DNA of 64,000 nt. Origin: an uncultured Nitrososphaerota archaeon (GTDB taxonomy: Archaea > Thermoproteota > Nitrososphaeria > Nitrososphaerales > Nitrosopumilaceae). The stretch is from positions 128,001 through 192,000 of the forward strand of contig OY969559.1 in NCBI GenBank assembly GCA_963701075.1, given 5' to 3'. The position numbers were made by a program, and so were the translations under genes. A model generated the notes under the pieces. It saw nothing but the letters and a program-made list of their open reading frames with translations, was not told where the DNA came from and did no database searches. Shown piece after piece: positions 15,587-43,416 of this stretch (within the stretch, counting starts at the first letter, position 1; the number at the start of each line of letters is the position of its first letter).

Positions 15587-15676
15587 CGGGTCTAGTGGGA
15601 TTTGAACCCACGACATAGGGATGTCTCCGAAAAGATCATAAGAGTCCCTCGCTCTACCTGGCTGAGCCATAGACCC
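15587..15676 (-). tRNA. tRNA-Lys(CTT) with 16-nt intron at 37/38
   Basis: GGGTCTATGGCTCAGCCAGGTAGAGCGAGGGA-CTCTTA[TGATCTTTTCGGAGAC]A-TCCCT...GTGGGTTCAAATCCCACTAGACCCG. Confidence 0.92.
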
Positions 15677-15730: not shown

Positions 15731-16328
15731 TTAGTTTTTGACTGTCTCGATTTGAGAATATTTTTCCAGTATTTTTGTCAATACTGTAGAAACTGGAACA
15801 TTGTTCATCTTCTCTTTTTCTTCCAAGAGTTTTCGGTATGCATCAAGTGTGATGTATACTGGAATTGAACCATTGCCTTCCAATAGTCCACGAACTCTGT
15901 ACAGCGCAGTCTCCATTCCCTTCTCGGCAACTTTTGCAAACTTGACCTTGTTGAGAATTCCACCCAGAGGACCAAATGGCATTTCATAGTTTACTGTCAT
16001 GGTAACGCGGGTTGATTTCTCACCCAGTTCCTTGAACTCTACTGAAATATTCCATGCTTTGAATGGTCCTTTGATCATTTTCAGCTGCAATCTTTTGTTC
16101 TGGTATAAACTCAGTTGTTTCACAGTCCCACTCTAGTCTCTTGCCATCAAAGTCACCTATCACTCTAAAGGTTGTACCTACACCCATTCCTGCCTTTACA
16201 TCCATAGGAACTACGGTCATTCCTACTCGCTCTTCGAACTGGTCAGAAATGTGCTCTGGTCTTGCAAAGTATGTAAAAACATTCAAGGTCTTCTCTTTGA
16301 TGTCAATTGATTTACTGACAGATGTCAT
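15731..16328 (-). CDS. SRPBCC/START-domain (polyketide cyclase-like) protein, split by +1 indel at ~16085
   Basis: MTSVSKSIDIK...EFIPEQKIA / KMIKGPFKAW...YEMPFGPLG. Removing one base at AGCT 16083-16086 gives 199 codons. Confidence 0.8.
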
Positions 16329-16459
16329 ATACAGTGGGCAATCTTTTTCAACTTGATTTAAAGCTTTTGCTAATTTCCAGCGATCGTAAGACTTGGAGGG
16401 AATAGTTGAAGCATTCTCAGCTGTTCTGATTTGCGTCTTATGGTGTTGATCTAACAATA

Positions 16460-17744
16460 GGTTCTGTCAAGTTTATTGCTCATGAACTATCAAATAGATC
16501 GCAGTTATTGCAAAATAACCTCCTGATTTATTATATCGTATCAGCAGAATCTCCACACACTTGTTAGCTACCAAATCCATCAAACAATCATACCAACAAA
16601 ACAATGATCTTGACAGCATGATGGAAACATTTCGACAGATGGTAAACTATTGTATAAGATTGGGTCTTGAAAGCAATATTTCCACTCTAAAGAAATTCTC
16701 ATCACTTCATTACAAAGATCTAGAAAAATACAACATTCAATCAAAATACAAGCTTACTGCCATGTCTCAAGCTTGTGGAAGACTTGCGCAAATGAAAAAA
16801 GACATTAAGAAAGGCAAAACTCCAAAGTACCCATACGTACAGAAATCGTTCCTAGTCTCATGTTATGGCTTCAAGATAAACGGTCAATTACTTTCAATCC
16901 CAGTAGGAGATAGAAGACACATCCACATTATACTGAACTATCATACACAAGCAATTCTCTCAGACAAATCACTCAAGGTCAAATCATTTGTAATCACACC
17001 AGATTCAATCAGCCTTTGTGTACAAAAGGAAGTTGAAGAGATTGAATGCAATAGCACCATTGGAATAGACAGGAATCTACGAAATGTCACAGTAGGAAAC
17101 CATGATAAAGTAACAATGTATGACATGTCAGATATACCAGAAATCACACATCGTGCAAAAAAGATTATCTCATCATTCAAAAGAAATGACCATAGAATAA
17201 GACAAAAAATCTACTCCAAGATTAGTAATAGAAGAGCAAGAAGAGTAAAACAATTCCTCAACAGAATCTCAAAAGACATTGTACAAAAAGCAAGAGAATC
17301 CAAATCCATAATAGTATTTGAAGATTTGAAAGGTATTCGTAAACTCTACAAAAAAGGAAATGGTCAAGGGAAAAAATATCGTGGAATTATGAATTCATGG
17401 TCATTCTACGAGTTACAGAGACAGATACAATACAAAGCAGACTGGAAAGGAATTCCAGTACGATTTGTATCACCAGTACGCACCAGCATACTGTGTCCAA
17501 TATGCGGGGATAGAACCCAAGAGGATAGAGCACAACATCGTCAAGTTTGGTGCAGCAGTTGTAAAAAATTAATGGATCGTGACATTGTCGCAGCCATGAA
17601 TATCTCTTACAAGGGGTTGCAAAAGTTCTGCAATCCTAGTGGGCTTTCAGAAAAAGCAATGAGGGGGAACTTGGATAACGCAATGCCAGTAATCCTCCGA
17701 GTCGATGGAAGCAAGTTATCTCAACAACCAGAGATGACAGAACT
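16460..17744 (+). mobile_element. Non-autonomous TnpB element 1 with imperfect terminal inverted repeats
   Basis: Left end AGGTTCTGTCAAGTTTATTGCTCATG is 23/26 identical to the left end of element 2. Right end TGACAGAAC at 17735-17743. Confidence 0.7.
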
Positions 17745-17766
17745 TATTAAAGAAAAAGACCAGTAA
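16561..17766 (+). CDS. tnpB: TnpB (Cas12f-like) RNA-guided nuclease
   Basis: RuvC-I GIDRN, RuvC-II VFEDL, zinc finger CPIC..CSSC, RuvC-III DRDIVAAMNI. Confidence 0.92.
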   Translation: MLATKSIKQSYQQNNDLDSMMETFRQMVNYCIRLGLESNISTLKKFSSLHYKDLEKYNIQSKYKLTAMSQACGRLAQMKKDIKKGKTPKYPYVQKSFLVSCYGFKINGQLLSIPVGDRRHIHIILNYHTQAILSDKSLKVKSFVITPDSISLCVQKEVEEIECNSTIGIDRNLRNVTVGNHDKVTMYDMSDIPEITHRAKKIISSFKRNDHRIRQKIYSKISNRRARRVKQFLNRISKDIVQKARESKSIIVFEDLKGIRKLYKKGNGQGKKYRGIMNSWSFYELQRQIQYKADWKGIPVRFVSPVRTSILCPICGDRTQEDRAQHRQVWCSSCKKLMDRDIVAAMNISYKGLQKFCNPSGLSEKAMRGNLDNAMPVILRVDGSKLSQQPEMTELIKEKDQ

Positions 17767-17772
17767 AAAGAG

Positions 17773-18336
17773 ATGGTTAACTTTCGATTTCTAGTTGCCA
17801 TGTTTGCTTTAGTGTTAGTTCTTTCTCCCATGATACAATATGCAAGTGCCCATGAGGATCTAAACTCTGGCGACGAGTCGATAGGAAATTATGAAGTGCA
17901 GGTAGCAACAGACCCTGAGATCCCATCTGCCAACCAGCCTTTCAAATTAAGTTTTAGAGTTCTAAATTACCAATCAGCCTCTAATCTGTTCAATTCATTT
18001 GACACTAGGCTAAGCGAGGTTGATCACTTTAGGATGGGAATTAGAATTTATTACAACAACGAGCTAGTATCAACAATTCCAGTACAAGACTTCAAGGGCG
18101 GGGAGTGGTCTACTAATTACGTGTTTCATGAATCTGGGAACCATGTCATGTTCGTTGATCTCTATGATGTTGGACCTGGCGGACAGCCCCTGACCTTTAT
18201 TTACAATATCAGTGTGCTTGACGTATTTGGCCCACTATTTGTGTATATCATCTCAGCAGGAGGCATGTCATGCTTTGTCTTACTTGGATGGGTAGTAGTT
18301 ACAAATAAAAGAAAAAAAGTAAAATCTAAGCACTAG
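17773..18336 (+). CDS. Secreted, membrane-anchored Ig-like protein adjacent to the cox operon
   Basis: Signal peptide ending ASA|H (N-terminal His), YVFHESGNH, C-terminal TM. Confidence 0.65.
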   Translation: MVNFRFLVAMFALVLVLSPMIQYASAHEDLNSGDESIGNYEVQVATDPEIPSANQPFKLSFRVLNYQSASNLFNSFDTRLSEVDHFRMGIRIYYNNELVSTIPVQDFKGGEWSTNYVFHESGNHVMFVDLYDVGPGGQPLTFIYNISVLDVFGPLFVYIISAGGMSCFVLLGWVVVTNKRKKVKSKH

Positions 18337-21396: not shown

Positions 21397-21825
21397 TCAA
21401 GTGGCGTTATCATCCTCCACTACAAGCGATCCTCTCATGTTATAGTGCAAAAGACCACAATATTCTCTGCATTGTATAGGATATGTCCCTACCGTATCCG
21501 GTGCAAACCATGCATGATTTACATGACCTGGAACTGCATCTTCGAAGACTACCCAGTCTGGAATGTTAAATGAGTGCATTACATCTCTTGAATAGATCTC
21601 AAAGACATATGCATGGCCCTTCTTGACATGCAGAGTGCTAATCTCCTTTGTTCCATCTGCATGCTCAAAGCTCCAGTACCACTGCTGACCGGTTACTTTG
21701 ATAACTTCGGCATCGGCTGGAACGTCTTCAACTGCTTTTTGAACTATCCAAGAATCTACACCGACATAACATAAAACTGCAATAACGATAGCAACAAAGA
21801 CCCACTCGGCGGTATCGTGACCCAT
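21397..21825 (-). CDS. coxB: Heme-copper oxidase subunit II (CuA domain, one TM)
   Basis: GQQWYW, DVMHSF, CREYCGLLHYNM. Confidence 0.94.
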   Translation of the reverse strand: MGHDTAEWVFVAIVIAVLCYVGVDSWIVQKAVEDVPADAEVIKVTGQQWYWSFEHADGTKEISTLHVKKGHAYVFEIYSRDVMHSFNIPDWVVFEDAVPGHVNHAWFAPDTVGTYPIQCREYCGLLHYNMRGSLVVEDDNAT

Positions 21826-22137
21826 CTAATGACCGCCCTCGTCTTCATAGCTGCCAGCGGTTGGATCTTCAAGGTGTTCCCATTTGGTAGGAGTTTTGTT
21901 CTTTGGATTTGATTCTCTAAATCTCCAGCAAAGCCAGATTATTGTACCTGACACAATTGCGCCAACTGTAAATGCGGCAGTAGTCATTCTGAAGAACTCG
22001 TTCCACACCACTGCCCTTAGGTTGATGTATTGTTTTGGGGATGTTTGTTGTGCAAGCTGGGCATGTGCAAAGTAGATCTGGGGAACTAGGGCCAAAGCAA
22101 TTATCGTTATAATTGAAATAGCAATGAGGGTTTTCAT
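21826..22137 (-). CDS. Small cox-operon membrane protein (resembles subunit II N-terminal helix)
   Basis: Signal peptide plus TM ending WLCWRFRES. Abuts coxB. Confidence 0.7.
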   Translation of the reverse strand: MKTLIAISIITIIALALVPQIYFAHAQLAQQTSPKQYINLRAVVWNEFFRMTTAAFTVGAIVSGTIIWLCWRFRESNPKNKTPTKWEHLEDPTAGSYEDEGGH

Positions 22138-22575
22138 TTGCTGTTTTCACGTTCACTTCGCTTTCTATTTAAGCGTTTTGAAGATTGTCAGCGATCCATC
22201 AAGTTTTTTGAATATATTATAATGATCATATCTTTTTAAGAAAGTCATTCTTGCTCACACCATGAAAGTAACAAGTGTGCATGAGGACCCATACAAAAAA
22301 GGCGATCTAGACCGATCTTTAATTATTTAATGTACTATACATCAAAGAAAATTGCATCATAAAATTCTGGAATCATAATACGAAGTAATAGTATTCATTG
22401 ATGTAAAACGTCTTTCTCGATGTTTTACAGATACAAAAGATGGTAGAAATCCAGTTTAAGGCATTATCAGTTTTGTAAGACAAGCGAAGATTTCTCACAT
22501 AACTTCTCTGCAAAATAGATTTGAATCAAGTAACAGAATTCTTGTATTCCATAACTTTCGTTAGGAGTTTTCAGA

Positions 22576-22597
22576 TAAAAAGGAAAAGGGGGGAAAG
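22576..22597 (-). terminator. Pyrimidine/oligo-T terminator of the S-layer gene
   Basis: Pyrimidine-only T/C run ending TTTTCCTTTTT ~25 bp after the stop on the minus strand. Confidence 0.55.
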
Positions 22598-22621
22598 TTA
22601 GTTGTTTTTTGTATCTCTAGT

Positions 22622-25600
22622 CTACTGTACTGTGATAGTTGTACTCAATGGTGGCGACAGTGCGTTTGGATTGTCGATGCTCTGCCATACAAAGATTTGA
22701 GCAGTGTATGTGCCAGCTGTTGACGGAGTCCATGACTGGGCCGGGTTGAGTGACTGACCTGCAGACAGCGTACCTGTGATCCATGAGAGTGAGACAGTCA
22801 CACCGTTTGCATCCTGTATTTGTACAAGATATGCAAATGGCTGGTCTACGGTTTGTCCGTTAGCCAAATCAGCAGTCACTTGGATCTGCTGGCCTGTCTT
22901 GACGGTACCGTTGATTGCGTTGCCAAACGAGTCAACTATTCTTGGGTTGGTGGCCGGCGCTCTTTCGAGTGGAGGCACAACTGTACCAATGAATGTTGTC
23001 GCGGTCATGCGCAAGTCATCAGCCGTGGTGTATGGCGGAGGCAATGTTAGATCATCGTATTCGCCTGTTACTGTATCGCCTTGTGAGACGTGCAACCTGT
23101 TACCAGATGACTGGAAGTTGGTTGTAAAGTACACAGTACCTTGGAAGATACCGGTATCCTGGCCAGTCTCTGTCATGGTGAGTTTGATACCACCTGAATC
23201 AGAGTCAGACCACACGTTGGTGTCGAACTTGTCGATCGCCTTTGGATTGAGGTTCATGTCTGGGTCTACTATTTGCAATACTCCTTGACCGTTAACTGGG
23301 TAGCTTGCCTGTAACCATGAGACTTCACCGATGTTCCATCTGATCAATGCAGAGCCAGTAACTGTTTGATCTCTTGTGAATTCAAACGATACTGATACAC
23401 CGTCAGAGTCTTCTGCTGGGAGGAATCCGTTTGTTGGACCACAAGGCGTAGAGGCGGTACATGAGGAACCTGCGGTTCCACCTGTGCCGATTAGGCCTGT
23501 TGGTTCTGTTCCTTGTCCATCAACACCGCCGGTACCCTTGAGGGTTGGATCGCCGGTGAGGATGACATATCCAGTGAAGATACCTGTGTCGACTCCGGTT
23601 TCTGAGAGCTTGTAGTAGATCTGGTTGCCTCTAGTTGAGACGATAACCTGATCTTCGTCAGTCAGACCGATTGTGTCGATTAGGTTTGGATCAAAGTTGT
23701 GATCTGGTGCGACTACGGTAATGTAAACCATATCAGTCCAGGTGTATACCTTCTGGTCGAGTTCAACTGTTGCGCCAAAGTTAGACGTGTAGATTGTCAG
23801 CTCAATATCTTGGCTGTTTGAACCTACTGTCTTGGCACCTGCTGGACCCCAGTCAGTATATTCTAGGTTGATCTGTTCTCCTAATTCAAGCTGTGTAGTT
23901 CCCAGTTCTTCTGGAATCTTTATCACTGCTTGGAAGATACCTGTATCCTTACCAGTCTCTACAAATGTTGAGGGCTTGGCATCAAAGGACTCAAAGATAG
24001 ATTGGCTTGACGCTAGGTCAGCCAATGGACCCATGGTACCCTTGTATGCGTGTGAGTCCCACTCGATTAGATCAAGTGGTACTGTCTCAGCAGTTTGTGA
24101 GTCTAGGTTCAAGTCTGGTTCTACCAAGGTTAAGATCATGTCTGAACCAATGATATAGACGGACTTGTCGGATTGTAGTACACCGTTTCGTAAGTCAAAT
24201 GTTGCAGAGTCTGTGACAGTTCCAGGTTGACCTGATGCAGTTGCTGTATCATAGTATGTTACAGTTAGTACATCTCCCTGTCTTACACAGTAGCCGTTGT
24301 TGCCAGTTGCTAGTGTTGTATTCTCAAATCTTGAGCCAATGCTAGAACTAAAGCCAGCAGTACCGGTACTGATAGACGAGTCATAGTTGTCAACTACAGG
24401 ACAGTCGGTGCCTTGTGGACCGTCGGTTAGTTCTATTGGCAGGTTAGTCTGGAAGATTCCAGCGCCTGGTGAGATCTCAGCCATAGGGCCAAGATCTGGA
24501 ACTAATGCCCACAATGGTGAATTCAATGTGGGTAGCTGTGTATTGACCAAGTTCAGGATATGACCAGTAGTTTTTGCTGGACCACCTGCTGTTGCCAAGA
24601 GCACAGACTCACCTTGTCTTGTAATTTGGAACGCGACTGGACCGTTAGCTGAGCCAAAGACACCAGTATTGATGAAGTTGGTGCCTGAGCCAGATATGGT
24701 ATAGTCTGGGTCATTTACTCTTGCGTGCACAAGGACAATACCTGCTGGTAATGTCACTGCGTCCGTAACAGCAGAAGCTCCAGTTCCAAATGTTCTGACA
24801 AGTCCTGTTCCTGATAGATCTCTATGTAATGGGAATACACCGTTGAGGCTGCTAACAGTTGAGAGCAATGCATGGTTAGCATTAGATACATCATCAAAGT
24901 TTGCAGTTCCCAGTGTTGATGCTGTGTCTACTGTACCAAATGGTACTGGGTAGACAGATTTGTCCAACTTTACTGAGCCGGTGTTACCTCGGATACCAGC
25001 GTTGTCAGATACTTCAACCATTGTTCCAGATTGATCACGGAAGTCAACATAGTTGACCTTGACGTTCAATCCGTTGGTTGCAGTAGAGACGCCTGAAAGA
25101 CAGACGTGGTCTGGAATCTCAAATGTGCCTGTAAAGATGCCTGAACCTGCAGCAGTCTCAACTAGTGAGAATCCTGAGGCTGACAAGCTTGTTGCAAATC
25201 CACTAGGTGTTCCTGTGTTGTTGTCATCAGTTTGTGTGCTGGCAACAGCGCCGAAGCATTGGCTAGTATTTGGATTGGTTGGGACGTTTGAGTTAGACCA
25301 TCTCTGATCTGACTGACCCCATTGTACATCTAAGAGCCTGCCAATGGCTGAGCCATCAGAATATGTACCAAGACCTGATGCACCGATTGTATCGGTTGCT
25401 GGGTCTTGTGTACAATTGAAGCCTTTCTGGCCCGTGGCACATTGTGACGGGTTCGCGGCGACAGTCAAGCCAGCTTGTGGCGTAACTGCCGTATAGATTA
25501 CAACTAGGTCGTTGTTGGTATTCAAGTCTGGGTCGTTAACTGTAATTGTCACAGTGTCTCCTATCTTGTATGTCGTCTGGTCAAATGATACGGTTCCAGA

Positions 25601-28409
25601 GTGAGTTGGGATATCTTGCTGTGCAGATATCTGCGAGTTTACACCGTCAGCACCTAAATCTAGATAGGTTACTTGTGGTGCATTTGCGTCAGCCTGGATC
25701 ATATCTTGGATTGCTGCAAACAGAACATCGTGATTAATTGTCCTCAATTGGGTGTAGGTACTTGGGTTGAGAAGATTCAACTGGTTGAGCATCAGGAACT
25801 GTGTAGTTCCAGTAAAGACACCAGTGTTTGCACTGCTCTCTTGAAGCTCCCATCTGTAGATGGCGTTGTTTATTCTCTGGTTGTTATTTGTACCGTCTCC
25901 TACTATACCGATTGACATAAAGTCAGTAACCAGTGGCAAGTTCTTTGTAACAAAGCCATTGCCTGATGCACCAGCTACTGGCAGAACTGTTCCGCCAGTA
26001 GTAAATGAGTACATAAAGCCAAGGTCTGCTTTATTTGGAATGCCAAAGATTCTTTTTGCTATAACTGCTCCGTTGTCAACTACGCCAGGAGTGTATTGCA
26101 CATGATCAGTTGCAGTATTTGCATCTGGTTCATCTGCAGCAGTTCCTAGCTCGAGTGCCGTTCAAATTGACAAAGTCTTCCATATTGGTGTCATTTGCCA
26201 ATGAGATAAACACTGTATTTGCACATGTTGGTGCTGGACAGTTTCCGGCTATCTGTTCAACGGAGCCGTTGGTTGGGCTGATGAACGATGCTTTTCCAGT
26301 AGGTGAAGTGTCCACAGGAGCTGTGTTGTACGCCAAGAAGATTTGCACTGCTGTGGGGTCAACACCTGTCGCTCCGTTGAGGCTTGTTAGAGACCTCAAG
26401 TCAAAGTTGAGGAAGTTGAAACCATGGAATCTTGTTGTTGCAGTCGTTGTACCCGTTGCTGGGTTGTTGATTGTGTTCAACAAGGTCTGCATGGTTGCAC
26501 CCGTATCAAGAACGAGACCACCAGTGTTTTGTATTGTTGGGGTATTTGTTGATACTTGGAATGCTGGGACTACTCTGTTACTGAATTGTTCATCTACACC
26601 ATTGTCTGGATCGGTTGAAGAAGATGTGATGGAACTAGAACCGTTGAAGCCAAGTATGATTGTACCGTTAGCAAATTTACCTATTCCAAGGTTAATTTTA
26701 GATACAAAGATACCTGGATCAATGGCACCTGTTAGACAGGTGGGACAACCGCTGTTCAATGAGAATGGAGTTCCAATCTTCATTGTAGAGATTCTTCCTA
26801 CGTTACCATCATAATCATTGAGGTATTGATCAACTTTTGAGTTCGTGTTTGCGTTGTTATCCGTTAGTGTGACTGGAATTCTTGTACCTGATGACCAAGT
26901 GCCGTTTGCTGCAGTCATTGTAATTGTGCCAAATGAATAGCCGCCTACGATGCTTCCTCCAAGTTCATTATAGTTGAAGGTTGCAGACTGGCCTCTAATT
27001 GACTGTCCAAGTCCAGATTGCTCTGATGGAGTTAATGTTACAATGTCTGCTGTATGACTACCGTCCCAGTTGCCAAAGACACCTGTACTCACACCACCTT
27101 GTTCAAGGAATGTGATAGGCTCTGAACCAGCGTTGAAGCTAAGTCCAGTGTCTTGTACTGTGGTTGGATCACCACGTCCGCCACTTGCAATCACTTGTAG
27201 TCCGTTTTTCTGGAAGTCTACAACTCGGACGGCTTGTGCTTTCGGATTGAAAGTAAATGCGCCGTTGTGATTGAAGTTCATGGAGGTTAGGTTTCCAATC
27301 AGGTTCTGCATGGCTGGTGAACTTGCTGGTGCCTGAGGCATCAACGTGTTTCCTGCGCCACCAGATGCTGCTGAACCTAGTATACCGTCAGCCGCGACTC
27401 CACCGTTCTTGTTAAATGCTTCATAGAACAGTGTATTGTTCGTAGGGTTTGCACCCCATGTCCACGAGTCTGGGTCTGTCGGGTCTACGTTAAGCTGTGG
27501 GTCGTTCATAGTCAAGAACACTTGTGCGTTATCTGGATAGGATGTCCTATCTGGAGTTACGCTGATCAAGTTACTAGGAATTCTATCAAAAGTCAGGTTG
27601 ACGACTTGGTCGCCACCTGCAGCTGAATAGTCAACTGTTACTGGACTTGGAATAGCTGAGAAATCATATAGCTGGATTACTGGCCATATTTGTTCATATG
27701 CGCCGCTTGCGGCAAAGCCGTTACCGGCATTTGAACCAGTACCTGAACCGACAGTGCTCAGAGTCTTGTTCTCTCTGATCACATTTTCGGTGGTATTTTG
27801 ACTTACTGGGTTACCATTGATATCACCAGTTATTACAGCCGGAATAGTACACACATTGCTGAGTGCACCAATCGATGTTATCGAAAATGGTGATATTGGG
27901 TTTGTTGCAGCGCTTCCAGAAGTGGCATTACTGATTGCGTTTCTTGCAATAGTAAATCCTTTGGTGTTTGAATAATCAAGACCAGATCTCACTCCACCTA
28001 CGCTAGATGTTGGACCACAGAAGAAACCAAAGTTAAGACCTTTGCCAGCTACTGGAGCAGTCTTGCCTGCAATTTCAGCTTGATTTCTATCAGCAAAGTA
28101 TCCATACCAGTTACCGTCTGTACCCTGTGCCATTCTCAGTCTCTTACCGTTGACGTTCACGAGTGGTTCACCGTATGCTTGATTCAATTGTGATATGTTT
28201 GGATCAGATACGATTACTTGAACCACATCTGGACCGGCAAAGTAATTGTTGAACTGAGAGTTTTCAGCAGAGACAAACAAGTTAGGATGTGATGCTACCT
28301 GAGCGTGTGCTGCTGGCATTGCGTTTGGCAATGCAAATGCAGCGCTGCTCATAAGTAGTATAGTTAATAGTGATAGACTAGTTATTTTTCTTATTAGATT
28401 GTTGTACAT
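22622..28409 (-). CDS. slaA: Main S-layer protein (~1,928 aa), split by +1 indel at ~26150
   Basis: N-terminal NLFVSAENSQFNNYFAGP...KRLRMAQGTDGNWYGYFA, repeated ETG.DTGIF Ig-domain motifs, C-terminal P.ALSPP. Removing one base at AGCT 26148-26151 gives 1,929 codons. Confidence 0.9.
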
Positions 28410-30530: not shown

Positions 30531-30755
30531 CTATTGAACTAGTTCTATTTCTTTTACAGAATGACGCAAAACTTCTTCTATATCTTTAGATTTTTTCTTG
30601 GGAAGCATTATTTCTAGACCAAAGGCCTGTCCGTTTTCTGCAACATCTAGATAGGTGCCCTTGCCTAATGGTATGGTTTTAATAATTCGTTGTTTACCTT
30701 TTGCAAATTTCACGTATATTGCATTTGCTAATGGATCATATTGTGCTAAAACCAT
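30531..30755 (-). CDS. DUF2283-type putative antitoxin
   Basis: YDPLANAIYVKF...YLDVAENGQAFGLEI. Confidence 0.8.
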   Translation of the reverse strand: MVLAQYDPLANAIYVKFAKGKQRIIKTIPLGKGTYLDVAENGQAFGLEIMLPKKKSKDIEEVLRHSVKEIELVQ

Positions 30756-31029
30756 GTCTTTTCAATGCTCCTCTTGTTGTCCACATTACTGAAATAATCC
30801 AAACTGCTGTATTAAACTTGCTATGTACTATCAATAGATATGCTTGATTTTTGGTGTATGGGTGTATAGTTAAACCGTAGCTTTTGTAGTTATCTTCTCT
30901 TGGATCGTAAATTGTTTCTATAGGACTGTTAATTATAACTTCAATTTTTTTTTCAGATATATCACGTTGTTGACACCGTAATCTTGCATGTCTTGTTAGA
31001 CGTATAGAATATTTTTTTGTAGATGTCAA
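30736..31029 (-). CDS. DUF4258-type (RelE-like) putative toxin
   Basis: LTRHARLRCQQRDIS...IISVM. Overlaps the DUF2283-type gene. Confidence 0.8.
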   Translation of the reverse strand: MTSTKKYSIRLTRHARLRCQQRDISEKKIEVIINSPIETIYDPREDNYKSYGLTIHPYTKNQAYLLIVHSKFNTAVWIISVMWTTRGALKRHGFSTI

Positions 31030-36843: not shown

Positions 36844-37032
36844 TTGAGATGATCTTTGGCACCATGATATTAATTGGTTCTAGTCTTTGCAAAAAAAAGA
36901 GATTTTTTAAAAATCAAGGTAAAGAGCGGCGAAAGTTCTGGTATTTTTTTGCAGATGTAACAAAGTACAATCTAAATTGTATAGCAAGAATCTTCCATAG
37001 GTTTTAGTATATCACAAATATACCGCACCTCA

Positions 37033-38216: not shown

Positions 38217-38471
38217 TCATTTGTAAACTTTTTTTCTGTGCTCAAATCTTAGCAGATATAGAACTGTTCCCTGATATGCATAGATGAGCCTGTAGGGTTT
38301 TACATAGACCGTCCTTTCACCTTTCAAGTCATATCTTAGCGGCTTTCCTAACTCAGGAGATTCTACTATGTTTTGTATCTGCTTTTGCAGTTTTTCTTTT
38401 AGTTTGCTATCTTTGATTTTTGTAACTTCTTTTTTGAACTTGTCAGACCATATTATTTGGGTAATTACCAT
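38217..38471 (-). CDS. RelE/ParE toxin
   Basis: WSDKFKK...PELGKPLRYDLKG...PYRLIY...FEHRKKVY. ATG at 38471. Confidence 0.88.
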   Translation of the reverse strand: MVITQIIWSDKFKKEVTKIKDSKLKEKLQKQIQNIVESPELGKPLRYDLKGERTVYVKPYRLIYAYQGTVLYLLRFEHRKKVYK

Positions 38472-38737
38472 TTGGCAAATTCCATAAAGAATTTGGATGT
38501 ATTGGCTTTTCCACCCTTGCCAGTTTCTATTTCCCGCCATGCCTCATGGATTGACTTGAGTGTTTTAATATCGTCCTGACTCAATTTTTGGTCTACCTTT
38601 TTTAGAACGATCAAACCTTTTTTTTCTGTTATGACAAATACGTTTCCATCCTTTATGTCAAGTTTTTTTCTTACCTTGTTTGGTATTACTATCTGTCCCC
38701 TGCTGCTAACTGTGGTGAACATGGTTTCATTTGACAT
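38465..38737 (-). CDS. AbrB/MazE-type antitoxin
   Basis: VSSRGQIVIPNKVRKKLDIKDG. Confidence 0.88.
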   Translation of the reverse strand: MSNETMFTTVSSRGQIVIPNKVRKKLDIKDGNVFVITEKKGLIVLKKVDQKLSQDDIKTLKSIHEAWREIETGKGGKANTSKFFMEFAKW

Positions 38738-40499: not shown

Positions 40500-40581
40500 T
40501 TTGATCCGTGTTATGATATACAGCATATTTCAAGGTGCTGTCAAATTAGATTCATAAAAATAACTATCTGGTGAGATCAAC

Positions 40582-40605
40582 AGGTTCTGTCAACTTGATG
40601 GCTCA
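40582..40605 (+). mobile_element. Solo terminal inverted repeat of the TnpB-element family
   Basis: AGGTTCTGTCAACTTGATGGCTCA is identical to 42123-42146. Confidence 0.8.
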
Positions 40606-40634
40606 ATGGTTTGTAGTGACTTGGAGTTAACTAG

Positions 40635-40868
40635 TCATCCAAGAAGCCTTGAAAAATCTTCCACGCTCATTCCAGCATCATCTATTATTCTGCTCAACGT
40701 GCCTTTCTTCAACTCTTTATGCAAGGGAACAGTAAGCTTGATTATTTTATCAGCATGAACTTTTTCTAATCTCACATGACTGCCTTTCTGTCTTATGACC
40801 CTAAAACCAGCCTTACTGAGTGCCTTTATGACATCCTTGCCAGAAGTTATAGGTAGTTTGGTGCTCAA
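40635..40868 (-). CDS. hicA: HicA toxin
   Basis: GFRVIRQKGSHVRL...VPLHKELKKGTL. Confidence 0.92.
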   Translation of the reverse strand: MSTKLPITSGKDVIKALSKAGFRVIRQKGSHVRLEKVHADKIIKLTVPLHKELKKGTLSRIIDDAGMSVEDFSRLLG

Positions 40869-41056
40869 ATAGCAACCTCAACAATCTCCTTTCCTTCTGC
40901 TTTCTCAGTATATTCTAGATAAAGCTCTATGGCTTCTCGTATGTTGTGAAGTGTTTCTTCTTTTGTTTCACCTTCACTTATACATCCCGGAAGTGATGGT
41001 ACGTATGCAGTATAACCTCCCTCTTCTTGTGACTCGAGAACTACCTTGATCTTCAA
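40865..41056 (-). CDS. hicB: HicB antitoxin (short)
   Basis: EGGYTAYVPSLPGCISEGET.EE...NIREAIELYLE. Confidence 0.92.
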   Translation of the reverse strand: MKIKVVLESQEEGGYTAYVPSLPGCISEGETKEETLHNIREAIELYLEYTEKAEGKEIVEVAI

Positions 41057-41145
41057 CTGTTATAATTTTGTCTAGGTGATAAATATTGGTTCTGTTTGAT
41101 ATGTCTTATTGCCCTCAACTGGCAAAGTTACTTGAAATCTGGTCT

Positions 41146-42021: not shown

Positions 42022-42123
42022 CTTCGATTCACTCCATACCATAATCAAAAAACATGTTTTATTTCTTGTCTACGAGTTGTTTTGATGTGTTATTTCTTGT
42101 GTTTTGTTTGAATGCTAATCTTA

Positions 42124-43403
42124 GGTTCTGTCAACTTGATGGCTCATGGCAGGCATTGTAAACTTCTTGAGATATATCACAATTACCTGCTCTTTTAAGA
42201 AGATCAAAGATATCAAAAGCCTACCGTGTTATCAGTCAAATGTGTAACACAGAACCATCGCTGTGCCGAGATTGTACCAGTGATGAAGGATTTCAGGTCT
42301 GTTGTAAACGATGCAATAAAGCTGGGTATCGAACATAACATTACTTCGAGATTTAAACTACGAAGCCTGGTCTATCCAAGGTTTAACAAGATGATGTATT
42401 CTGGATATGTCTATACCGCAATTTGGAAGGCTTGTGCCATGCTCAAAAACTATCGCAGAACAAAAAAGAAGAATGCTCATGCCAGGATACCTGTCATGAA
42501 AAGTCACATCCTTGTAATTGATAACCAGAGATACGAGATAATCCACAACCATCTCAAGTTTCCAGTCAGGCCTAGGCAGTTTGTATACATTCCTCTCAAT
42601 CACTACGTTTGTAAAATTTTACTGCAACCAGGTCTGAAACTTGGTGAGGTTACATTAACTGAAGAAAAACTCTTCATATCTTATACAAAAGTGATATCCA
42701 AAAAGGAGCCAAAGGGATACATTGGAATTGACATGAACCTTGAGAACGCAACTGGCACAGATGAAAGCGGCACCACTACAATAGTAGACACATCTGATAT
42801 TGTATCAATGAAAGCAAAATACAGAGATGTACTGTCGCACTTTACAAGAAATGATGCCAAGATACAAAAGAGACTCAAACAAAAATATGGCAAGAAACAA
42901 AAAAACAAAGAAGATACATTCCTGCACCAGAAATCAAAGGAGATTGTATCACAAGGCAGGCAGGTCATAATGGAGAATCTCACCGGAATAAGAAGATTGT
43001 ACAGAAAAGGAAATGGTCAGGGAAAAAGGTTTAGGTTCAGACTAAACTCGTGGTCAAGATTCAAGTTGCAAAAGATGATAGAGTACAAGTCAGTTGATTG
43101 TAACGGCCTTGAAGTGATTTACATAAAACCAAATGGGACTTCATCGAGGTGTGCGACATGTGGGTCAAAACTAGTACCCGAAGAGCACCGAATGATGAGA
43201 TGTCCCTCCTGTCGTGTTACCACAGACAGGGACAAAAATGCCAGCAAGAATATTCTGGCTAGAGGCTTGGCAATGCTGGAACAGAAAGAACCAGCACGGT
43301 TCGAGCCTGACGCAGTGCAAGGTGAAGCGATGAAGCAGTTCAAAGATGTGGAGCAGATTGCACCGAGTCTACTTGTTGGACGAGCCATCAAGTTGACAGA
43401 ACC
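42124..43403 (+). mobile_element. Non-autonomous TnpB element 2 with perfect 22-bp TIRs and target-site duplication
   Basis: GGTTCTGTCAACTTGATGGCTC at 42124-42145, inverted at 43382-43403. Flanks are TAATCTTA and TAATCTTG. Confidence 0.9.
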
Positions 43404-43416
43404 TAATCTTGTGTGA
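42226..43416 (+). CDS. tnpB: TnpB (Cas12f-like) RNA-guided nuclease
   Basis: GIDMN, IMENL, CATC..CPSC, DRDKNASKNI. Confidence 0.92.
   Translation: MLSVKCVTQNHRCAEIVPVMKDFRSVVNDAIKLGIEHNITSRFKLRSLVYPRFNKMMYSGYVYTAIWKACAMLKNYRRTKKKNAHARIPVMKSHILVIDNQRYEIIHNHLKFPVRPRQFVYIPLNHYVCKILLQPGLKLGEVTLTEEKLFISYTKVISKKEPKGYIGIDMNLENATGTDESGTTTIVDTSDIVSMKAKYRDVLSHFTRNDAKIQKRLKQKYGKKQKNKEDTFLHQKSKEIVSQGRQVIMENLTGIRRLYRKGNGQGKRFRFRLNSWSRFKLQKMIEYKSVDCNGLEVIYIKPNGTSSRCATCGSKLVPEEHRMMRCPSCRVTTDRDKNASKNILARGLAMLEQKEPARFEPDAVQGEAMKQFKDVEQIAPSLLVGRAIKLTEPNLV

Follow-up and report, generated by a model that had tools for sequence, protein, structure and literature searches.

TnpB-only insertion sequences with IS6-like ends and an omega-RNA-like right terminus in ammonia-oxidizing archaea

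Introduction

TnpB, the ancestor of Cas12, is mainly understood as the partner of transposases that excise without leaving a scar, namely those of IS605 and IS607, where it restores the excised copy. In IS607, the transposase is a serine recombinase, TnpA, and insertion takes place at GG. Here, we analyzed two TnpB elements, A and B, in a stretch of 64,000 nucleotides from an uncultured Nitrososphaerota archaeon (assembly GCA_963701075.1, contig OY969559.1, positions 128,001 to 192,000), hereafter called the window. They belong to a large family of insertion sequences (ISs) of approximately 1.25-1.45 kb in ammonia-oxidizing archaea (Nitrosotalea, Nitrosotenuis and Nitrosopumilus), each with tnpB as its one gene. 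We favor, with a probability of roughly 0.6, the reading that an IS6-like DDE transposase acts in trans to move A and B, which would be non-autonomous TnpB/omega-RNA elements.

For the ends, the family to compare is IS6/IS26. According to Harmer and Hall (PMC6807381), its terminal inverted repeat (TIR) has the consensus GGTTCTGTTGCAAA, GG and G7 are almost invariant, archaeal TIRs measure at least 18 bp, and 8-bp target-site duplications (TSDs) are formed. Varani et al. (PMC7986276) list 8-bp repeats, GG tips and the motifs cTGTt and caaa, and an IS431mec-like element has the repeat TGGTTCTGTTGCAAAGT (PMC10581047). With IS6/IS26, including the archaeal ISH14 and ISH29, the elements analyzed here share the GG start, G7, GGTTCTGT, the 8-bp TSD and TIRs longer than 14 bp, as in the archaeal members. 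They differ in lacking an inner DDE transposase, in carrying tnpB as cargo, in their length (1.25-1.45 kb compared with approximately 0.7-0.9 kb), in TIRs of 20-37 bp and in the usual absence of caaa.

For the cargo, the IS1341 group of IS200/IS605 (for example, ISDra2-type OMEGA systems) is similar in its TnpB of approximately 400 aa with RuvC D/E/D residues and a zinc finger, in a structured RNA that lies over the gene's 3' end and stops at the right transposon end, and in a short motif 5' of the insertion. However, a lack of both TIRs and TSDs belongs to the definition of IS200/IS605 and IS607 (PMC13565253), and the haloarchaeal IS1341-type elements are described without either (PMC3119063). 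IS1341-group elements have hairpin ends, a Y1 TnpA and single-stranded intermediates (PMC13565253), whereas TIRs and an 8-bp TSD are present here, so that the first 8 nt targeted would be those of the TSD.

TnpBs with DDE-type ends are already known. In Altae-Tran et al. (2023; PMC10691335), prokaryotic TnpBs of the DDE-associated branches lie within inverted terminal repeats, trans mobilization is suggested for solo TnpBs that share these ends, and the 3' end of tnpB lies no more than 250 bp from the transposon end, as in the present family. The families named are IS630 in that text and ISL2, IS630 and IS1031 in PMC13565253, not IS6. Fanzor in DNA transposons with TIRs and TSDs is likewise a TnpB homologue riding DDE-type transposons, with a guide RNA scaffold that reaches into the transposon end; there, the target-adjacent motif (TAM) includes the 5' TSD and the scaffold includes the 3' TSD (PMC13565253), whereas here the sequence of the TSD is not fixed and the conserved motif stands 5' of the TSD. 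The whole words "IS6" and "IS26" occur 0 times in the main text of PMC10691335, a count that leaves aside the supplements, where the clade may be listed, and TnpB occurs 0 times in the IS6 review (PMC7986276). Literature searches, judged by titles, abstracts or listings, returned no TnpB with IS6 family ends, no IS6 in ammonia-oxidizing archaea and no TnpB in Thaumarchaeota, which suggests that IS6-type ends around TnpB are not in print.

Results

The family has inverted ends and inserts with an 8-bp duplication

An earlier reading of the window from its sequence alone (the sequence-only reading) had proposed that the link between TIR and TnpB is a family trait rather than a one-off insertion, to be checked in the flanks of relatives. 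From 309 relatives of TnpB-A found in Nitrososphaerota genomes, the best 80 were kept as loci (L001-L080); the profile used for retrieval was an alignment of TnpB-A, TnpB-B and 16 homologues (18 sequences). Together with the two window copies, these loci made 82 entries, in which a crude script with fixed tips placed 62 candidate end pairs, window copies included; the 20 entries with no pair were mostly truncated contigs. A separate, unbiased search, in which the two regions flanking each open reading frame (ORF) were compared for their best inverted match, returned inverted repeats of 20-37 nt in many loci, the left one starting with GGTTCTGT and the right one ending with ACAGAACC. The inner parts of the TIRs vary between lineages and agree within an element (31/31 in L035, 26/26 in L061 and 24/24 in L070).

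Duplications of 8 bp lie immediately outside the GG and CC tips; they are perfect in 23 of the 62 end pairs, 7/8 in four and 6/8 in one. The elements are 1249-1450 nt long (median, 1288), and tnpB is the sole gene between the ends in all of them. Paralogues within single genomes are 92-97% identical from TIR to TIR (L076/L077, 96.9% over 1306/1306 nt; L071/L072, 96.2%; L033/L054, 92.3%), and the flanks of these three pairs gave no BLAST match to each other. Among the complete genomes with many copies, which include OZ245003.1 and NZ_CP130341.1, OZ240211.1 is the source of L068, L070-L072, L076, L077 and L079. With TIRs and TSDs recurring across relatives and paralogues, the family trait is borne out.

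Empty sites give the same boundaries. The site of A, which in L057 is occupied by a TnpB 99% identical, reads in L038 as one TTAAAGAA, preceded by ATA, and the L012 element lies between two copies of TTAAAGAA. The L038 element in turn lies between two copies of ATTCTTTA (ATTCTT(T)A), of which there is a single copy in L010, in L074 and in the window (~6213, between the amino-acid kinase and class IV aminotransferase genes). The window also holds, near 37002-37004, the empty site for the element of L019. The elements insert with an 8-bp TSD, which points to staggered-cut DDE-type transposition, and TIRs combined with 8-bp TSDs rule out IS200/IS605 and IS607 mobility.

Other observations concern the surroundings of the relatives. 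A second TnpB element lies within 7 kb of the first in L072 (5685-7016, 24/24 TIR) and in L001 (5853-7061), and L029 has one doubtful further TIR pair. The flanks of L013 and L031, in opposite orientations, map to window positions 21637-23035, around a 487-nt gap between a 103-aa ORF (21829-22137) and a 1159-aa ORF (22625-26101), which may be a second recurrent insertion site. Four 191-aa ORFs adjoining right ends are not related among themselves. In A (16464-16478 with 16602-16616) and B (42249-42256), the left TIR has an internal complement; this is not a family trait, the mean longest match being 4.76 nt compared with 4.21 in shuffles.

The tips resemble those of IS6/IS26

Position by position, the first 8 nt of the right end agree with GGTTCTGT in 36-40 of 40 well-defined elements. 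The left end is somewhat less conserved: G1 is present in 29/40 and G7 in 39/40, compared with 38/40 for G1 of the right end. The right TIR of L009 matches the IS6 consensus at 14/14 positions, and six more ends do so with two mismatches. Additionally, the TIR of B is nearly the same as that of the A-clade locus L063, although TnpB-B is at most 38% identical to every A-clade locus. This suggests that the ends follow a shared trans-acting enzyme and not the cargo.

Elements A and B probably differ in age

B, whose 22-bp TIR is perfect, whose TSD matches at 7/8 positions and whose ORF is intact, looks like a young, possibly mobile copy (Table 1). Its repeat had earlier been put at 12 nt; it is in fact 22 nt long without a mismatch, and a repeat search extends the inverted arms to 25 nt at 100%. 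The statement that no TSD is visible fits A (4/8) and fails for B and for the family. Allowing up to three mismatches, the 22-mer of B occurs four times in the window (0.00 expected), and the exact 22-mer was found only at the two ends of B and at a solo site. GGTTCTGT occurs seven times compared with 1.73 expected, a value reached in 0 of 100 shuffles; an 11-mer with up to two mismatches is at chance level (29 compared with 22.25 expected; 8 of 100 shuffles at or above the observed number).

Further TIR-like sequences stand near the solo TIR. A degenerate copy at 40534 (GGTGCTGTCAA...) lies 49 nt upstream of it, and a further GGTTCTGT lies at 41088. The copies at 40534-40606 and 41088-41095 are co-oriented and flank a hicA/hicB-like pair (40635-41056) approximately 1.5 kb to the left of B; earlier insertions or rearrangements may have left them behind. 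B itself lies in a sugar-biosynthesis island with scattered toxin-antitoxin-like pairs, namely ParE with a MazE/AbrB-type partner and a HicA/HicB-like pair, and a DUF4258 gene (38217-38737, 40635-41056 and 30739-31029).

The left ends of A and B are alike, as the sequence-only reading had it: the 26-nt motifs at 16459 and 42123 match at 23/26 positions, and the left GG lies 101 nt from the TTG start in A and 102 nt from the GTG start in B. The reverse complement of the start of this motif falls in the last codons of both ORFs, where TGACAGAAC spans ...MTEL in A (17735-17743) and TTGACAGAACC spans ...LTEP in B, also as had been described. Beyond that, the two ends of A diverge. A repeat search found inverted arms of merely 14 nt at 93%, and the ends differ in subtype beyond approximately 10 nt; for the left part the nearest sequences are L007/L008, and for the last ~150 nt the nearest is L003 (89%). 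The right junction is the point at which homology to the empty site in L038 resumes, and approximately 62-73 nt outside the left end have no counterpart in that empty site (L038 7010-7028).

A thus looks like an older mosaic whose ends no longer match, with tnpB and the RNA apparently intact. Its greater age had been proposed before and is a reasonable view, given the missing TSD, the decayed and mismatched right TIR, the mosaic structure and a second, degenerate TIR-like stretch outside the left end. Because of the mixed subtypes, the missing TSD and that extra stretch, it is probable that several events at a repeatedly hit site produced A.

The site of A (15960-16460 and 17745-18244) is the gap between an SRPBCC-type gene and a gene for a 187-aa protein. 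In different genomes, the same gap holds three different TnpB elements, namely A, L012 (62% identical) and L067 (51%, opposite orientation), and L038 has it empty; the insertion points of A and L012 are no more than 2-3 nt apart. The gap looks like an insertion hot spot. The SRPBCC/polyketide-cyclase-like gene (15731-16457, minus strand) is broken up, with a 130-aa ORF and a 145-aa ORF that overlap; its counterpart in L057 is one ORF of 241 aa, and the split in the window may be a frameshift or a sequencing error. On the other side, the stop codon of tnpB-A lies in the flank, 6 nt before the ATG of the 187-aa gene (17764-17775); because A ends 29 nt from this ATG, the gene's own promoter has probably been displaced. 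A tRNA match of 90 nt, probably with an intron, lies 0.8 kb from A (15587-15676, minus strand).

The window comes from a Nitrosotalea-like ammonia-oxidizing archaeon, the best matches of both TnpBs being named Nitrosotalea or Nitrososphaerota, and Pfam assigned neighboring genes to cytochrome oxidase, cupredoxins and a sugar and cell-envelope cluster.

Table 1. Positions in the window of the two elements and their parts (MFE, minimum free energy; dot, no strand)
Feature	Position	Strand	Remarks
Element A, TnpB-only IS with IS6-like ends, decayed and mosaic	16460..17744	+	End pair 17/36 matches; no TSD (4/8)
TIR-like remnant outside left end of A, degenerate	16423..16452	+	TGTTCTG...GTTGATC; resembles L016/L019 TIR subtype; judged by eye
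Left TIR of A (GGTTCTGTCAAGTTTATTGCTCATG)	16460..16484	+	19/22 compared with TIR of B; subtype of L007, L008, L038
tnpB-A ORF	16561..17766	+	401 aa; TTG start; stop codon 22 nt past element end
Omega-RNA-like scaffold of A	17624..17744	+	Helix 0, 17624-17630 with 17738-17744; terminal hairpin, 17715-17722 with 17731-17738; MFE fold, pair counts
Right end of A, tip ACAGAACT	17719..17744	+	Decayed TIR of another subtype, like right end of L003
Predicted guide segment of A's putative omega-RNA	17745..17764	+	Directly 3' of scaffold end; homology between copies stops at TIR
Solo TIR beside hicA/hicB	40583..40604	+	22/22 compared with TIRs of B; similarity to B ends after 23 nt
Left TSD of B (TAATCTTA)	42116..42123	.	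7/8 compared with 43404-43411; directly outside GG...CC
Element B, intact TnpB-only IS	42124..43403	+	1280 bp; perfect TIRs; TSD 7/8
Left TIR of B	42124..42145	+	22/22 compared with right TIR
tnpB-B ORF	42226..43416	+	396 aa; GTG start; stop codon 13 nt past element end
Omega-RNA-like scaffold of B	43298..43403	+	MFE fold: GGTTC 43298-43302 pairs with 3'-terminal GAACC
Right TIR of B	43382..43403	-	22/22 compared with left TIR; encodes ...AIKLTEP in tnpB frame
Right TSD of B (TAATCTTG)	43404..43411	.	Predicted first 8 nt of guide

TnpB-A and TnpB-B are divergent TnpB proteins

The divergence of the two proteins that had been noted from the sequence amounts to 34% identity over 356 aa. Both match PF07282 above its cut-off. 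For the guided_TnpB model NF040570 (cut-off 100), TnpB-A scores 133.5 bits and TnpB-B scores 95.9 bits, slightly below; NF038280, a test for IS607, gives 38.5 and 29.1 bits, far from its cut-off of 350. The PDB matches are TnpB and Cas12f. D170, E254 and D341, which we take to be the catalytic D, E and D of RuvC, and C312, C315, C331 and C334, presumably a CxxC...CxxC zinc finger, are invariant in the 18 aligned sequences, TnpB-A and TnpB-B among them. The database version of TnpB-A has 382 aa and starts from an internal ATG; the databases label it an IS200/IS605 accessory protein. It has a DRD motif and is typical of TnpB proteins.

In the 18-sequence alignment, the homologues are conserved as far as ...RVDGSKL and divergent thereafter. 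Both window ORFs cross the element end into flanking DNA, as do only 7 of 41 family ORFs, and TEP is carried by 1 of 54 B-clade proteins. The MTEL and LTEP tails result from in-frame translation of the TIR and are no protein signature, and the suggestion that (L/M)TEP tails be used to collect relatives would give an insensitive search. TATA-like AT-rich boxes, judged by eye, lie approximately 27-34 nt before both starts (TTTATTATA at 16527-16535 and CTTTTAAG at 42192-42199); with such a promoter within the element, the tnpB transcripts would be leaderless.

The right end can fold into an omega-RNA-like scaffold

Single-sequence folds of the last 110 nt of 41 elements mostly gave a terminal hairpin followed by six unpaired bases, AGAACC. 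The 5' arm of this hairpin starts in the K-L codons, and its 3' arm is the inner right TIR. RNAalifold on 38 sequences recovered only helix 1, a long-range helix with CG/GC and UA/AU swaps that alter amino acids; the remaining helices were taken from the single-sequence folds and then tested by pair counts. In helices 1-3 (38 sequences), 78.7% of 921 cells are paired compared with 32-46% for slid partners, both sides have changed in 19 of 26 pairs, and 0 of 500 shuffles reach the observed values.

In a further helix, helix 0, an internal GGUUY ~120 nt upstream pairs with the TIR tip (R-AACC), and 85.7% of cells are paired compared with 27-55% for slid partners. Compensations occur in L027, L065 and L080 (GGC with GCC), in L042 (GA with UC) and in A (AG... 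with ...CU), whose tip change from C to T is compensated by AGTTCTG. The fifth pair is U-G in 32/40 elements, a frequency that fits RNA pairing better than a DNA repeat.

A covariance model of the 3'-overlapping RNA, which the sequence-only reading had called for, was built (R1). It matches A with 102.7 bits (17635-17744) and B with 56.3 bits (43306-43403), both sequences being in its seed, and it found no orphan copies in the window, only A, B and weak minus-strand TIR matches (E values of 0.06-0.5). Rfam at gathering thresholds returned no known omega-RNA family in the window, only two tRNAs, and a MAFFT alignment of the two right ends alone was uninformative. By covariation, the last ~120 nt of each element are shown to make up a structured RNA that overlaps the 3' end of tnpB, and this RNA would function as an omega-RNA, that is, as a guide scaffold. 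The whole right TIR appears to be base-paired inside the omega-RNA-like scaffold, which ends at the transposon end; such pairing would account for the stronger conservation of the right tip compared with the left one.

A target motif is present on one side only

In the 27 elements whose TSD is 7/8 or perfect, the motif W-T-R stands directly 5' of the left TSD, with T at -2 in 26/27, a purine at -1 in 26/27 and T or A at -3 in 24/27; the background frequency of T is 0.31. A mirror motif after the right TSD was not found in these elements (A at +2 in 12/27). The counts are suggestive of a predicted TAM, since a transposase acting on two identical TIRs would have no obvious way to orient the element, and only tnpB and the RNA are asymmetric. 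Alternatively, W-T-R may reflect an orientation bias together with a preference for AT-rich DNA of the promoter-like kind.

Discussion

Overall, our comparisons point to elements that depend on an IS6-like DDE transposase, which we infer is supplied in trans from elsewhere in the genome. IS6 membership includes encoding a DDE transposase with an H-HTH domain; tnpB is the sole ORF here, and the elements would be at most non-autonomous derivatives. Several points weigh against this reading. Across the family, agreement with the IS6 consensus is general only over its first 8-9 nt, and "caaa" occurs in a minority. Pfam found no transposase in 57 of the 59 window ORFs (the other two, the tnpB genes, were scanned apart) or in the 150 that were scanned of 180 representative flank ORFs from 80 loci, where the genes are ordinary housekeeping ones apart from the second TnpB element in L072; TIR pairs ~800 bp apart were not found in the locus flanks. 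The TSD is 4/8 or poorer in 34 of the 62 end pairs, some of which were mis-set by the crude script (L003 clearly) and others of which may have undergone decay or rearrangement. The sole exception to W-T-R is B (TGC), although it is the better preserved of the two window copies. The RNA model derives partly from A's own MFE fold and from related sequences in a region that is partly coding, so that the controls overstate its significance. Moreover, IS6 elements move by replicative cointegrates and do not excise. The usual "restorative" role of TnpB would therefore be inapplicable, and only homing into empty alleles would apply.

The absence of any kind of transposase from the scanned ORFs and the shortness of the general IS6 likeness would also suit a DDE transposase outside IS6, from another family with 8-bp duplications or from an undescribed one, acting in trans on tips that are alike by convergence. 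PMC6807381 itself doubts that archaeal "IS6" elements belong to the bacterial family. However, GG tips, G7, the full GGTTCTGT and an 8-bp TSD coincide, with 12-14 of 14 consensus positions in some copies, and we consider such an enzyme an unlikely source of the movement. The same missing transposase, the restriction of every element to tnpB and the presence of several near-identical copies per genome raise another possibility: TnpB, an RNase-H-fold nuclease, might perform TIR-dependent transposition itself, alone or with host factors. These genomes would then have no separate transposase, and TnpB, with an RNA scaffold that contains the right TIR, would recognize the ends and carry out DDE-like transposition with an 8-bp duplication. 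If this were true, the "accessory" nuclease would here be the transposase. We find it very doubtful, because TnpB is established (PMC10691335; PMC13565253) as an RNA-guided nuclease that is dispensable for transposition, because the fixed 8-bp TSD and IS6-type tips point to a known DDE enzyme class, and because the RNA and the TAM-like motif suit the ordinary role of TnpB.

The typical protein and its database name would agree with ordinary tnpB elements of the IS200/IS605 (IS1341-type) or IS607 kind, in which the inverted motif would be a subterminal hairpin or a product of chance. That those families have neither TIRs nor TSDs (PMC13565253; PMC6188088) is difficult to reconcile with 23 perfect 8-bp TSDs, empty sites and TIRs of 20-37 bp; no TnpA was found in the scanned flank ORFs either, and this explanation has hardly any credit with us. 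We give still less to a promoter or operator upstream and an RNA or terminator element downstream in place of transposon ends. The right repeat is embedded in a structured RNA, and the solo copy at 40583 precedes unrelated genes; however, homology between paralogues and with empty sites stops exactly at GG and CC with the TSDs abutting, and the exact 22-mer is confined to B's two ends and that one solo site. A general promoter or operator with no inverted partner was the objection that the sequence-only reading had raised against itself, and it is contradicted by the empty-site comparisons.

We provide a putative mechanism that follows from the favored, IS6-like reading. An IS6-like DDE enzyme coded elsewhere in the genome would move the elements via their TIRs. 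Because the 3' strands of the scaffold are the right TIR, the guide should begin at the duplication; the scaffold would end at the transposon end, and the guide would consist of the right-hand duplication and the adjoining flank. The empty allele would read W-T-R, 8 nt and right flank, which would be a match for a guide starting at the right TSD, and in the occupied allele neither TSD copy would have both the TAM and a full match. TnpB and its RNA would then cut the empty allele and drive copying of the element into the cut allele, that is, homing. Such homing would explain why W-T-R almost always stands 5' of the left TSD, in one orientation, in the insertions that have survived.

These results place a large archaeal TnpB clade between ends of the kind found in a family with replicative transposition and 8-bp duplications. 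The right TIR appears to have a dual role as a transposase site and as part of the guide-RNA scaffold. Additionally, the one-sided W-T-R suggests that nuclease-driven homing, and not the transposase, decides which insertions persist, which would bear on why OMEGA modules pay off in transposons that are never excised. The predicted scaffold limits, guide start and TAM are concrete predictions for compact nucleases from ammonia oxidizers.

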